Below, in pieces: positions 29,634-34,080 of a stretch of DNA of 64,000 nucleotides (positions are counted from its first letter, which is position 1; each line of letters starts with the position of its first letter). Below the pieces are notes generated by a model. The model saw only the letters and a program-made list of their open reading frames with translations. It did no database searches and had not been told where the DNA came from. Made by a program: the position numbers and the translations under genes. The stretch covers positions 7,799-71,798 of the forward strand of contig JAQVYY010000008.1 of assembly GCA_028708425.1 (NCBI GenBank), given 5' to 3'. The stretch comes from Bacteroidales bacterium (GTDB taxonomy: Bacteria > Bacteroidota > Bacteroidia > Bacteroidales > Tenuifilaceae).

Positions 29634-29682
29634 CTAAGTCGCTGTCGGAGACAGCAATTATTTGAATGAATAATTGGGGCTA
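29634..29682 (+). mobile_element. MITE-like repeat family 1, copy 7 (right-end fragment)
   Basis: CTAAGTCGCTGTCGGAGACAGCAATTATTTGAATGAATAATTGGGGCTA. Confidence 0.8.
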
Positions 29683-30318
29683 ATGCAGCTTTGTGCCAAT
29701 TAGGTTTATAAACTCCTCACGGGTTTTGCTTTGCGATAGGAATATTCCGGTGAATGCCGAGGTTGTGGTAACCGAATTCTGTTTCTGAATACCACGCATT
29801 TGCATGCACATATGCCCTGCCTCAACTACCACTGCAACACCTAGCGGTTTTAGGTTTTCTTCAATACAATCGCGAATTTGAACGGTTAGCCGTTCTTGAA
29901 TCTGAAGCCTGCGAGCGTATGCCTCAACAACCCGGGCAATTTTGCTAAGCCCAGTGATATACCCATTAGGAATATACCCTACGTGGGCCTTGCCATAAAA
30001 GGGGATCATATGGTGTTCGCACATTGAGTATATCTCAATATCCTTTACTATAACCATTTGCTTGTAGTCTTCCTTAAACTTAGCCGATTGGATAATTTTT
30101 GCAGGGTCTACCGAAGAGCCATGGGTTAAAAATTGTACCGCTTTGGCTACGCGTATTGGCGTGTCAACCAGCCCCTCGCGCTCTACATCTTCACCTAGTA
30201 ATTTAAGAGCCTCCTTGTAATGGTAAGCTAATTTCTCCGTCTTTTTAGTATTCCATCTCTCCACCTTTTTATACCCTTCGTTTTCGGGAATAAAGGCACC
30301 ATCGTTAATTGTTTCCAT
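29680..30318 (-). CDS. folE: GTP cyclohydrolase I
   Basis: [26 protein letters not shown] and HMCMQMRG motifs. Confidence 0.97.
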
Positions 30319-30523: not shown

Positions 30524-30577
30524 TAGCCCCCCCCATTATTCATCAAATTTGTAAAAGATGAATACAAATGCGGGTTA
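30524..30577 (+). mobile_element. MITE-like repeat family 1, copy 8 (left hairpin module only)
   Basis: TAGCCCCCCCCATTATTCATCAAATTTGTAAAAGATGAATACAAATGCGGGTTA. Confidence 0.75.
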
Positions 30578-30661: not shown

Positions 30662-32725
30662 ATGAAAAAGCGAATTAAACTCCCCTTTAAAAACGCTGTA
30701 GGTATGCTTGGTGGCTATGCTAAGGATCGCATAGTTGAGCAAATTAAACTAATTGCGTTTATTATATTTTATTTAGTTGCCTTTCAGGTAGTCATCCTAA
30801 GAGTGCCACTTGCCGATGCGTGGTCTATTGCAGGTGGTATTGGTTTGGTGGTTTTGGGTTTGGCGCTATTTCTCGAGGGGCTTATATTGGGGCTTATGCC
30901 TCTGGGCGAAAGGGTAGGTGTTAAGATGCCCGTAAAATTCGGAATTCTCTTTATTTCGATATTTGGAGTATTCCTCGGTTTTGGTTCAACCATTGCAGAG
31001 CCTGCAATTAGCTCATTGCGTACAGCCGGTGCTGGGGTTACCGCTTGGGATGCCCCCATGCTTTATATGCTTCTTGAGCGCCATACACAGGCTCTGGTTT
31101 ATACCATAGGTGCAGGTGTTGGGATAGCAGTGGTTATAGGTATGGTTAGATTCTACTACGAATTTTCAATAAAGCCCTTTATTTTTATTCTTATCCCTGC
31201 TGCCCTGGTTTTTACGTTTTTCTTGTCTTTTGATGAAAAATTAAATTCAATTATTGCATTGGCATGGGACTCGGGAGCAGTAACAACCGGAGCGGTAACG
31301 GTTCCCCTTGTGCTAGCTTTGGGTATTGGTGTTTCAAGGGCTGCGAGTAAGAATAAGGCGACGGGTGGGGGGTTTGGTATTATTTTACTTGCCTCAATCC
31401 TCCCAGTTTTTAGCGTGCTAATTCTGGGTTTAGCTCTCCGTTCATCGTCGCCAGATACAACAACCGAAGCTCATTTCTTTTCGGAAGAGAACAGGGAGAA
31501 TGCGCTTAAACTTTTCGATGATGAAGCCGCTCTTCTAAATCATGCTTTTACTCGAGGAAGTGAGGTTGGTCGCAAATCGTTTTTTGCCGATGAAGCGCTC
31601 TATCTTGAAAACCTTAACCAGCTTGCCAATAATCCCACGGTGTTAAAAGATATGCTTGGCGAAATGTCGTTTGATGCCTGGCTTAGCAAAAGAGCCTCCG
31701 AGAGCGAACGAAAATATATCGCCTCAGTAAAAACCGAACCCTTAGATGTTGCATCGGGGATTCCTGTTTCTAAAGTATTTAAAGAGGAATCGAAAATTGC
31801 ACTGCAGGCAGTTATACCATTAACATTACTGCTGCTTATTGTACTCCTTTTATTCCTTCGCGAAAAATTACGCTTCAAAGATGAGTTTGCACTGGGTATA
31901 GCGTTTACTTTGGTTGGTATGATACTTCTAACTTCAGGAATTCGTTTGGGTTTAGGCCCATTAGGAGGTCAGGTTGGTGCACAGCTACCCAGGGCATTCA
32001 GCAAGGAGGCCAAATTTATTGATAGTAAAATGATTGCCCCATTTGATACCACGGTTGTTTTTAGCACAATAGCGGTTGATGGTTCTAAAGCACAATTTTT
32101 TAACCTTACGCAGGATGGTAAAAATGAGGTGGTCGAATTTATACCAGATAATTACGATAAGGAGAATAATATATACGAGCATGTGATAAAGCGAGCGCCT
32201 TTGCTGGGGCCAAACCTTACTATTTTAGGTGTTCTTCTTGTTCTGCTTTTTGCTTTCGGAATGGGATTTGGTGCAACAATGGCCGAGCCTGCCCTTAATG
32301 CCCTTGGTATAACGGTGGAGGAGATGACGGTTGGTGCCGTGAAACGCTCCCAAATAGTGTCTGTCGTTTCGCTGGGGGTTGGCATTGGTCTTGTTCTGGG
32401 TGTGCTAAGAATACTCTACGATATACCGCTTATTTGGCTTATTTTTCCAGGTTACTTTATTCTTTTGTTGTTAACCTATTTTAGTGAGGACGAATTTACC
32501 TCCATGGCGTGGGATTGTGGTGGTGTTACCACTGGCCCCGTTACCGTGCCATTAGTACTGGCAATGGGGTTGAGTATTGGTGGCGAACTTTTCGTTGTTG
32601 ACGGGTTTGGAATTTTAGCCTGTGCATCCTTTTCGCCAGTACTTACGGTGCTTATCTTTGGGCTAATAACCCGTGCACGTCAAAAACGAATTGTTAACGT
32701 ATCAACCGAGCATGATGATGAATAG
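30662..32725 (+). CDS. Fused double-DUF1538 membrane protein (putative transporter)
   Basis: Two copies of the AEPA...AWD(S/C)G(A/G)VTTG(A/P)VTVPLVLA(L/M)G motif set, separated by a soluble linker. Confidence 0.8.
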   Translation: MKKRIKLPFKNAVGMLGGYAKDRIVEQIKLIAFIIFYLVAFQVVILRVPLADAWSIAGGIGLVVLGLALFLEGLILGLMPLGERVGVKMPVKFGILFISIFGVFLGFGSTIAEPAISSLRTAGAGVTAWDAPMLYMLLERHTQALVYTIGAGVGIAVVIGMVRFYYEFSIKPFIFILIPAALVFTFFLSFDEKLNSIIALAWDSGAVTTGAVTVPLVLALGIGVSRAASKNKATGGGFGIILLASILPVFSVLILGLALRSSSPDTTTEAHFFSEENRENALKLFDDEAALLNHAFTRGSEVGRKSFFADEALYLENLNQLANNPTVLKDMLGEMSFDAWLSKRASESERKYIASVKTEPLDVASGIPVSKVFKEESKIALQAVIPLTLLLLIVLLLFLREKLRFKDEFALGIAFTLVGMILLTSGIRLGLGPLGGQVGAQLPRAFSKEAKFIDSKMIAPFDTTVVFSTIAVDGSKAQFFNLTQDGKNEVVEFIPDNYDKENNIYEHVIKRAPLLGPNLTILGVLLVLLFAFGMGFGATMAEPALNALGITVEEMTVGAVKRSQIVSVVSLGVGIGLVLGVLRILYDIPLIWLIFPGYFILLLLTYFSEDEFTSMAWDCGGVTTGPVTVPLVLAMGLSIGGELFVVDGFGILACASFSPVLTVLIFGLITRARQKRIVNVSTEHDDE

Positions 32726-33923
32726 AGATAATACCACATCGCAAAAGAATTTTTCCCCCTCGAGGGCTGTTTGGAAAACACAACTCGACAAGGGAGTCCA
32801 CTCTCCGCATAGGGTGAGCAGAATAACCTGTATTGCTAACAAGATGTTTAGCGATAAGATTGTTGAGCAGGTTTTTAAGCTGGGCATAAATACTATATTT
32901 GGTGAAACTGGACGAACGGCTAGAGAGTTTATTACTCCCCGAAACCTTGGCCTGCCGGGTTCAACTGCTAAGCTCCAAAGTACTCCTGTTGATGTTTTTC
33001 GGTTTACAGTACAGCGAAAGCAAGCCCGAACGGTTATGGATTACCTTGTGAAGGTAGGTGGATTTAATACACCTGGCAGGGGAACAGTATTCTCGCAAGA
33101 TTTGATAGAGTTCACAAAAAAAGAGCCAATATTTATTGATTTTGATGAGATTAAGAGTGATGTTCCCCACGATATACCCTATCTAAAGAAATTATCCTAC
33201 GTTATTTGCGTGCTTTCCGTTCCGGGTAGCGGCGAGAAAATGGCAAAGGTTGCTCTTGACCTGGGGATATGTGTACCCCTAATTACGCATGGTATTAGTA
33301 ACGATTTGCGCGACCAAATGGGGCTTATTAGAATCACCATCTCTCCAGAAAAAGAGGTGGTGCATCTTATTATGCCAGAGCAGGATACGGAAAGTATTAT
33401 TAAGCTTCTTCTCGAGGAGGGAAGGCTTGATAAACCTGGCCGAGGTTTTATATACCAAACCCCAATAAGCTTCGGATTGATTGATACTCGCATGCGTGTA
33501 GGTAGGCAGCAGTACGCTGCTAGTATGGAGCAAATAATTGCAGCCGTTGACCAGCTAAAGGGTAGTACCTCTTGGCGTAAACGCCTCGATACTGATGGTG
33601 TAGATACTATTGATAAGCAGCTTTGGCTACCCAACGATAACTGCGAAATTTCGGTTGTTACCGAAGAGGATGCCGAGGAACAGTTGAAAGTGGCAGGGAT
33701 GGAGGCAGGTGCCACAGGTTCTACCGTATCGCGTTTAAAGATGATTGTATCTAGGTCTAAGGACAGAAAAGCATCCTCGTTGGTGCAGAGTACTTTTAGC
33801 GTTGCAGCAGAAAAAACCAACGACGTAGTTGATGCCCTGCTTAAGAATAGTGCTGTGGGTGTTAAAAGTTCAGAAAGAGTTCAGGTTTTGGATTCACCCG
33901 CTGCGTATATTCATACATTCTAG
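32712..33923 (+). CDS. Protein with three tandem PII (GlnB)-like domains
   Basis: Repeats ending NTPGRGTVF and LDKPGRGFIYQTPI (with PEKEVV), plus a degenerate third with AGATGST; overlaps the DUF1538 stop; start ATG 32712 or 32673. Confidence 0.65.
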   Translation: MMMNRDNTTSQKNFSPSRAVWKTQLDKGVHSPHRVSRITCIANKMFSDKIVEQVFKLGINTIFGETGRTAREFITPRNLGLPGSTAKLQSTPVDVFRFTVQRKQARTVMDYLVKVGGFNTPGRGTVFSQDLIEFTKKEPIFIDFDEIKSDVPHDIPYLKKLSYVICVLSVPGSGEKMAKVALDLGICVPLITHGISNDLRDQMGLIRITISPEKEVVHLIMPEQDTESIIKLLLEEGRLDKPGRGFIYQTPISFGLIDTRMRVGRQQYAASMEQIIAAVDQLKGSTSWRKRLDTDGVDTIDKQLWLPNDNCEISVVTEEDAEEQLKVAGMEAGATGSTVSRLKMIVSRSKDRKASSLVQSTFSVAAEKTNDVVDALLKNSAVGVKSSERVQVLDSPAAYIHTF

Positions 33924-33929
33924 TGCCAT

Positions 33930-34035
33930 TAACCCGCATTATTCATCAAATTTAGTGAAGATGAATACAAATGCGGGTTATCCCAACATAGTCGCTGCCG
34001 AAGACAGCAATTATTCGAATGAATAGTTGGGGTTA
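33930..34035 (+). mobile_element. MITE-like repeat family 1, copy 9 (central deletion)
   Basis: Both termini intact; the GCCCAATTTTGGGC hairpin region is absent. Confidence 0.85.
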
Positions 34036-34048
34036 AAATACATTTAAG

Positions 34049-34080
34049 CCGACTAGGTTACCGACCTTGGTCGGTTTTTA
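34049..34080 (+). terminator. Probable intrinsic terminator of the DUF1538/PII operon
   Basis: CCGACTAGG...CCTTGGTCGG followed by TTTTT. Confidence 0.6.

Follow-up and report, generated by a model that had tools for sequence, protein, structure and literature searches.

The 64,000-nucleotide stretch of Bacteroidales DNA analysed here (the window, taken from contig JAQVYY010000008.1) encodes a protein of 403 amino acids (open reading frame 32712-33923, forward strand) in which three diverged PII-like domains, called R1, R2 and R3 below, follow one another in a single chain. The protein is most likely cytoplasmic, with three GlnB-fold domains, and its sequence places it in a PII clade encoded beside DUF1538 (UmpAB-type) transporters; a gene for a fused, two-repeat member of that transporter family lies directly upstream. 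Taken as a whole, the reading preferred here, to which we give slightly better than even chances, is that of a dedicated single-chain PII-like pseudo-trimer regulating the fused DUF1538 transporter. Few signal integrators are as widespread as PII proteins, which are understood as symmetric homotrimers with three equal clefts. No description of a DUF1538-PII pair or of a single-chain multi-PII protein was found in the literature searched, an absence that is not proof; the novelty lies in how the triple form is asymmetric in detail and not in the DUF1538-PII pairing as such.

Three PII-like folds in one chain

Three tandem PII-like domains had been proposed in an earlier note made from the DNA letters alone. 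Their presence was confirmed by AlphaFold2 models, by PDB matches of repeat profiles and by alignment to DUF1538-linked PII proteins, and the opposite outcome named in that note, detection of only one or two PII folds, was not encountered. All motifs quoted there were found in the frame, i.e. FNTPGRGTVFSQDL (residues 118-131), PEKEVV (residues 212-217), LDKPGRGFIYQTPI (residues 239-252), SMEQIIAAVDQLKG (residues 271-284) and AGATGST (residues 332-338).

Two AlphaFold2 runs were made, one with 44 homologues (mean predicted local distance difference test, pLDDT, 73.8; predicted template modelling score, pTM, 0.75) and one with 69 more diverse sequences (pLDDT 82.9, pTM 0.83). Topology was unchanged between them, and both displayed three beta-alpha-beta-beta-alpha-beta units with the same limits (Table 1). 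About 90 of the 403 residues had a pLDDT below 70 in the second model. Foldseek comparison with the PDB returned mostly GlnK/GlnB chains (probability 1.00, template modelling score on target 0.6-0.72, root mean square deviation 2-4 A over 83-107 columns); its library is chain-wise and cannot report a pseudo-trimer, and its output is silent on the repeat covered by each match. By models and Foldseek together, the units are double beta-alpha-beta ferredoxin-like folds superposable on GlnB/GlnK. Long matches of low score (sulfur oxygenase reductase, designed cages, aspartate kinase) were discarded as meaningless, their deviations amounting to 15-20 A.

A diverse family alignment was cut into R1, R2 and R3, and each repeat profile was searched against PDB sequences. 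PII proteins accounted for all 15 matches of R1 (best E 3e-3) and for 24 of the 25 matches of R2 (best E 1e-4); the best E value for R3 was 9e-5, with PII alignments that were near full-length. Likewise, hhalign alignment over 91-94 columns to repeat 2 of a 263-amino-acid double PII from another Bacteroidota genome (G023) gave 95.5% for R1, 98.4% for R2 and 94.0% for R3. Over this reference and four single-domain P-II proteins from Bacillus, Pseudodesulfovibrio and Balneolales, the values ranged from 88 to 96%, from 97 to 98% and from 85 to 94%, respectively, alignments to the DUF1538-linked PII proteins spanning 76-94 columns. Scores were weaker against a degenerate 120-amino-acid Balneolales paralogue and against repeat 1 of the double PII. 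Direct comparison of the repeats with one another, made on a shallow alignment, detected only R1-R2 (83%, E 9e-6, 34 columns); R1-R3 and R2-R3 were at noise level, so that the homology of R3 was shown via these third-party PII proteins.

Standard annotation would miss the folds because the Pfam P-II model (PF00543) stays below threshold: the whole protein scored 15.1 bits against a cut-off of 25 (E 0.03), over residues 312-343 only, and single repeats scored no better. The double PII of G023 passes the same model at 48 bits. A single-sequence phmmer search of the PDB was marginal (E 0.04), and no curated family was found for the DUF1538-associated PII-like clade. A CpaD match in the Pfam and NCBIfam whole-protein scans was rejected as spurious.

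Divergence of the repeats and the linker helix

In R1 the T-loop is replaced by a beta-hairpin that is long, rigid and confidently modelled (strands 61-76 and 84-101, conserved tip PRxxGLPG); the B-loop is kept as PGRG and GxxGxT is lost. R2 has a short, flexible and nearly invariant T-loop of about 14 residues (~198-212). Its family consensus comprises G194, G196, G198, R200 and D201, the window protein itself having S196 and D198. K214 is the equivalent of K58 and the B-loop reads P242-G243-R244-G245; P189, R200, K214 and G245 were 100% conserved among 341 family members. R3 proved as degenerate as the earlier note had described it, since among the PII site motifs only GxxGxT was kept (G333-x-x-G336-x-T338), without B-loop glycines, T-loop or a lysine at the K58 position. 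Its own loop is short and variable and corresponds neither to the R1-type hairpin nor to the R2-type T-loop. A long flexible T-loop bearing a modifiable Tyr51 or Ser49 was found in no repeat.

The interdomain linkers measure 23 and 53 residues. A helix expected between R2 and R3 was indeed present (residues 269-292) and turned out to be the most conserved segment of the family (mean conservation 0.70), A270, D280, W288 and R289 reaching 100% and Q274 98%. Its pLDDT was 40-50 in both AlphaFold2 runs. That the best conserved segment is yet unplaced in the monomer model suggests that this helix binds a partner.

The N-terminal extension is specific to the Bacteroidota clade and corresponds to about 70% gaps in the family-wide alignment. 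Its helix appeared in both AlphaFold2 models. In one alignment of homologues, S15, P16, S17, V20, W21, G28, P32, H33 and R34 of its motif were invariant.

Ligand half-sites are split among the repeats

Weighted conservation was computed over the 341 family members, with the residues of the repeats numbered after E. coli GlnB; the GlnB sequence, entered by hand, had no other use than this numbering and a single row in the hhalign comparison. In PII proteins, the half-site GxxGxT is contributed by one subunit to the cleft of the next. Among the repeats, R3 alone has preserved it (G 98%, G 97%, T 87%). R1 and R2, but not R3, have the B-loop GxG (97-100%). Only R2 retained the T-loop base (equivalents of G35, G37, R39 and D40: G 94%, G 74%, R 100%, D 87%) and the K58 equivalent (100%). 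Equivalents of R101/R103 were not conserved, and the full set of nucleotide-site motifs (GxxGxT, R38/Q39, K58, GDGK, R101/R103) occurred in no repeat.

Single-domain relatives carry both half-sites in each domain (AGAEGGT, GRGTGI, EPEKE, KPGKG), which indicates that the triple fusion partitioned these motifs. Intact half-sites on different repeats are sensible only if unlike repeats adjoin in PII fashion. Judging from the motifs, any ring order would offer at most one fully canonical cleft and leave at least one dead. The non-equivalent sites postulated in the earlier note are in this sense borne out at the sequence level, half-site motifs being kept on different repeats. Its further proposal that such sites integrate different signals found no support: the pattern suggests that sites were lost, leaving one canonical, one divergent and one dead, and not that there are several competent sensors.

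Packing of the three repeats

The pseudo-trimer arrangement proposed as possible in the earlier note was supported in part. Its three folds were found; the packing is consistent with a pTM of 0.83 and with the complementary half-sites, and for the rest is inferred. Such a pTM over 403 residues indicates that the AlphaFold2 model places each of the three domains confidently with respect to the others, as one rigid body, which is not proof of a triangular arrangement. We consider it probable that the three repeats pack intramolecularly as a PII-like pseudo-trimer. Mean-field direct coupling analysis (DCA; 341 sequences, effective number Neff ~200, gap columns removed) recovered plausible intra-domain strand pairings together with a small R1-to-R2 coupling cluster, between positions equivalent to 33/34/37/86/90 and 64/96/97/99/102, which belong to the PII inter-subunit cleft.

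Several points weigh against the pseudo-trimer and its regulatory role. The triangular packing was deduced from pTM and half-site retention and not from coordinates or predicted aligned error, and AlphaFold, given a single chain, may build into it contacts that are in reality made between chains. Interface enrichment in the DCA couplings (a pre-defined test at Neff ~200) was not significant (R1-R2 p = 0.09, reverse 0.95), with no more than background for the remaining two interfaces; the couplings are not counted in favour of the pseudo-trimer. The double-PII relatives have one domain too few for an intramolecular trimer, and other assemblies exist in the clade on that account. The equivalent of K90, a phosphate-binding residue of PII, is replaced in all repeats (S/T, F, R), for which reason nucleotide binding is not assured. 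The cargo of the transporter is uncertain as well, since this protein lies far below the UmpA and UmpB equivalog cut-offs (see below).

The alternative that survives best is a conventional oligomer, in which three chains would associate through their equivalent repeats, R1 with R1 and so on, either as three linked homotrimeric rings or through a domain swap. All characterised PII proteins known to us are trimers, the double-PII relatives (263 amino acids) must form theirs by inter-chain contacts, and a monomer AlphaFold run cannot tell these from intra-chain ones. Yet a ring made of R3 only has GxxGxT without a B-loop and rings made of R1 or R2 only have the reverse; none of them would contain a complete site, although the half-motifs are 87-100% conserved. 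Since, moreover, the pTM indicates a confident single-chain body and both linkers are long enough for intra-chain closure, we regard this arrangement as unlikely.

A little less likely again is a non-sensing structural subunit, a cytoplasmic cap or scaffold that would have lost ligand binding and on which the DUF1538 transporter would depend to assemble or to remain stable. It would account for the absence of K90 in every repeat, for the unconserved R101/R103 equivalents, for the degeneracy of R1 and R3 and for a Pfam P-II score below threshold, and PII-like domains with structural roles are known, e.g. the lid domains of NIF3 (PMC1779786). It fits poorly with the residues that are invariant across several phyla, which sit at PII nucleotide-site positions (R200, K214, G243 and G245 in R2; G333, G336 and T338 in R3). 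A classical nitrogen regulator of the GlnB/GlnK type, merely triplicated, was rejected as highly improbable, even if homologues go under the name "nitrogen regulatory protein PII" in some sources: neither amtB nor glnA nor any further nitrogen gene lies nearby and DUF1538 is the sole conserved neighbour, a long T-loop with a site for modification like Tyr51 is lacking in every repeat, Pfam P-II remains below threshold, and in profile comparison the repeats lie much nearer to DUF1538-linked PII than to E. coli GlnB (sequence entered by hand).

The DUF1538 partner

The membrane partner matched Pfam PF07556 in two stretches (343 bits, E 4.8e-103) and its N- and C-terminal halves are related (36% identity, E 8e-25), in agreement with the two-repeat organization that the earlier note had assigned to it. 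A structural match of three PII domains to two membrane repeats, also put forward there, is hypothetical. The partner scored 208.5 bits with NCBIfam UmpA (NF041627, equivalog cut-off 490) and 132.6 bits with UmpB (NF041628, equivalog cut-off 500), below both thresholds. In Halomonas zhaodongensis, UmpAB acts as a Na+(Li+,K+)/H+ antiporter (PMC5484666). It is the one DUF1538 pair known to have been characterised, and no other functional paper on the DUF1538 family was found in the literature searched.

Compared with its 478-amino-acid homologue from G023, which accompanies the double PII, the partner carries about 200 extra soluble residues in two insertions (~265-385 and ~445-520). These had no Pfam match. 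In the sample, where two short-form loci were compared, they occurred only together with the triple PII, and they are candidate docking domains for it. No solved DUF1538 structure is known to us, the PDB not having been searched with the DUF1538 protein.

Distribution and fusion series

The pair was compared in 80 genome loci plus metagenome contigs, a locus being informative when upstream DNA was retained. A fused DUF1538 gene of ~690 codons was found directly 5' of the triple-PII gene in 82 of 82 such loci; the two genes usually overlap and all other neighbours vary. Clustered at 50% identity, the family amounts to 483 groups with E<=1e-3, 204 of them with E<=1e-30; among the 150 listed, nearly all were full length (345-440 amino acids). 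A word-index search gave 271 matches of about 400 amino acids.

Hosts include Bacteroidales, Spirochaetaceae (Alkalispirochaeta alkalica), Victivallales of the Planctomycetes-Verrucomicrobia-Chlamydiae (PVC) group, Riflebacteria, Ozemobacteraceae and Vecturithrix. The homologue of Perlabentimonas gracilis (Bacteroidales) is 84% identical. This species and A. alkalica bear names of a haloalkaliphile type and are presumably haloalkaliphilic; many family members come from metagenome-assembled genomes of soda-lake sediments. DUF1538 is rare in Bacteroidota, occurring in 2 of the 121 genomes of the sample examined. The DUF1538/triple-PII pair was also seen on a 2.1-kb contig labelled Candidatus Micrarchaeota (JBDRIM010000049.1); it is of Bacteroidales type (55% identity) and more likely reflects a binning error than an archaeal occurrence.

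DUF1538/PII relatives form a fusion series. Two DUF1538 genes accompany two PII genes in Bacillus sp. FJAT-45350 and one PII gene in Pseudodesulfovibrio sp. F-1 (GCA_009729555.1); Balneolales have a fused DUF1538 and two PII genes, and G023 a fused DUF1538 of 478 amino acids and the double PII. The Pseudodesulfovibrio set sits between KhtT-like and Na_H_Exchanger-family (Pfam) genes on one side and a TrkA-domain K+ channel on the other, a context that supports a role in cation homeostasis.

Proposed mechanism

In the single-chain pseudo-trimer, the canonical cleft would be made of the T-loop base, K58 equivalent and B-loop of R2 facing the GxxGxT of R3, besides one divergent and one dead cleft. 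An adenine nucleotide (ATP, ADP or AMP, or a cyclic one such as cyclic di-AMP, c-di-AMP) bound at this R2/R3 cleft would change the position of the T-loop of R2, of the rigid hairpin of R1 and of the invariant helix in the linker. Through these three elements the protein would bind the transporter 1:1 and control its exchange of cations for protons. We infer this mode of regulation from GlnK-AmtB and SbtB-SbtA, on which it is modelled. By analogy with UmpAB, and given the cation-homeostasis neighbours in Pseudodesulfovibrio and the soda-lake origin of many members, the cargo would probably consist of monovalent cations, carried in exchange for protons. As to the ligand, c-di-AMP is one candidate, the diadenylate cyclase encoded in the genome being only permissive.

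A tentative proposal, which we find rather doubtful, is that of an obligately asymmetric PII in which one chain takes the place of the homotrimer, with one working R2/R3 cleft and two unequal arms. The arms, namely the hairpin of R1 (rigid) and the T-loop of R2 (flexible), would each dock on a DUF1538 repeat of their own, and the armless R3 would only complete the nucleotide site.

Comparison with known systems

GlnK-AmtB resembles the present pair in that a PII-fold protein is encoded beside, and presumably binds, a membrane transporter, with T-loop-type protrusions as likely contacts and a nucleotide cleft between neighbouring PII units. GlnK, however, is a homotrimer of 112-amino-acid subunits with three equal sites on a threefold-symmetric channel, whereas the triple PII has three unlike domains in one chain, at most one canonical site, a two-repeat partner and no link to nitrogen genes. 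SbtB, the cyanobacterial PII-like carbon sensor, is likewise a dedicated regulator co-transcribed with its transporter, the bicarbonate transporter SbtA. Its ligands are adenine nucleotides, among them cAMP and c-di-AMP (PMC9974498, PMC8654305). SbtB differs in being a homotrimer with an extra C-terminal R-loop, SbtA is trimeric, and the triple PII displays no membership of the SbtB group at the sequence level.

An assembly of unlike PII subunits is also encountered in NifI1/NifI2 of methanogen nitrogenase, but these are separate polypeptides that regulate nitrogenase and have no transporter link. PDB entry 9p1x contains 12 + 6 chains of two P-II proteins; its chains were the top PDB matches of the R1 and R3 profiles and were among those of R2. 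The DUF1538-linked single and double P-II proteins (105-263 amino acids) belong to the same clade as the triple PII (profiles 85-98%) and are likewise encoded directly after DUF1538 genes. Each of their domains keeps both half-sites, in contrast to the triple fusion, which divides the motifs. On the transporter side, UmpAB is of the same DUF1538 family and has two homologous halves of seven transmembrane segments working together (PMC5484666); its halves are two separate proteins, whereas the partner described here is fused and falls below the equivalog cut-offs. PII is unmentioned in the text of the UmpAB paper (PMC5484666).

A single-chain PII that occurs naturally and is widely conserved would be a convenient system in which to ask what number of sites and T-loops a PII switch requires. 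With more than 200 clusters at 50% identity (E<=1e-30), several phyla and partitioned half-sites, the triple-PII family would offer such material; it also gives a handle on the DUF1538/Ump transporter family. If the asymmetric arrangement were true, it would show a threefold sensor remodelled to fit a twofold-pseudosymmetric transporter, and DUF1538-PII would join GlnK-AmtB and SbtB-SbtA as the third ancient system that pairs a PII with a transporter.

Gene organization and other features

The upstream DUF1538 gene ends with a TAG stop at 32723-32725, and a run of ATG triplets (32712-32720) at the start of the PII frame falls within its final codons. The overlap amounts to 14 nucleotides when ATG 32712 is used and to 8 nucleotides with ATG 32718, and this layout indicates that the two genes are translationally coupled. 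A terminator-like hairpin downstream of the PII gene is likely the end of the transcription unit; together with the overlap it points to a two-gene operon (Table 1).

Table 1. Coordinates of the DUF1538/triple-PII operon and of the segments of the triple-PII protein in the window.
Feature	Position	Strand	Residues	Characteristics
Fused 2xDUF1538 (UmpA/UmpB-like) membrane protein	30662..32725	+	687 aa	Pfam PF07556
Triple PII-like protein	32712..33923	+	403 aa	271 family matches by word-index search
N-terminal extension	32712..32804	+	1-31	Helix 16-27; motif SPSRxVWRTQ..KG..PHR
R1	32805..33113	+	32-134	PII-like; AlphaFold2 pLDDT 87-97, PDB profile, hhalign
R2	33183..33479	+	158-256	Most canonical PII-like domain; profiles, hhalign 98.4%
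Linker helix	33516..33587	+	269-292	AAS.EQIIAA.DQLK..T.WR.R
R3	33639..33908	+	310-399	Degenerate PII-like domain; P-II stretch 312-343, hhalign 94.0%
Terminator-like hairpin followed by T run	34046..34077	+		Likely end of two-gene operon

Two repeat families bracket the operon and look like interspersed intergenic repeats of the MITE/REP type (miniature inverted-repeat transposable elements, repetitive extragenic palindromes). A 48-nucleotide element occurs just 5' of the DUF1538 gene (30530-30577) and 10 nucleotides past the PII stop (33933-33980), the copies being 90% identical; a 70-nucleotide element has copies at 29637-29706 and 33990-34059 (80% identity).

No GlnB/GlnK-type match was found in the assembly to which the window belongs (96% complete). 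Its sole match above the Pfam P-II cut-off (38.6 bits) was a gene of 97 codons (contig C62, 92865-93155). This gene directly follows that of a 1061-amino-acid protein which, judged from its sequence by eye and from the adjacency, looks like a resistance-nodulation-division (RND) efflux pump, and is similar to members of the "PII-NG" group, known for their association with metal-efflux pumps.

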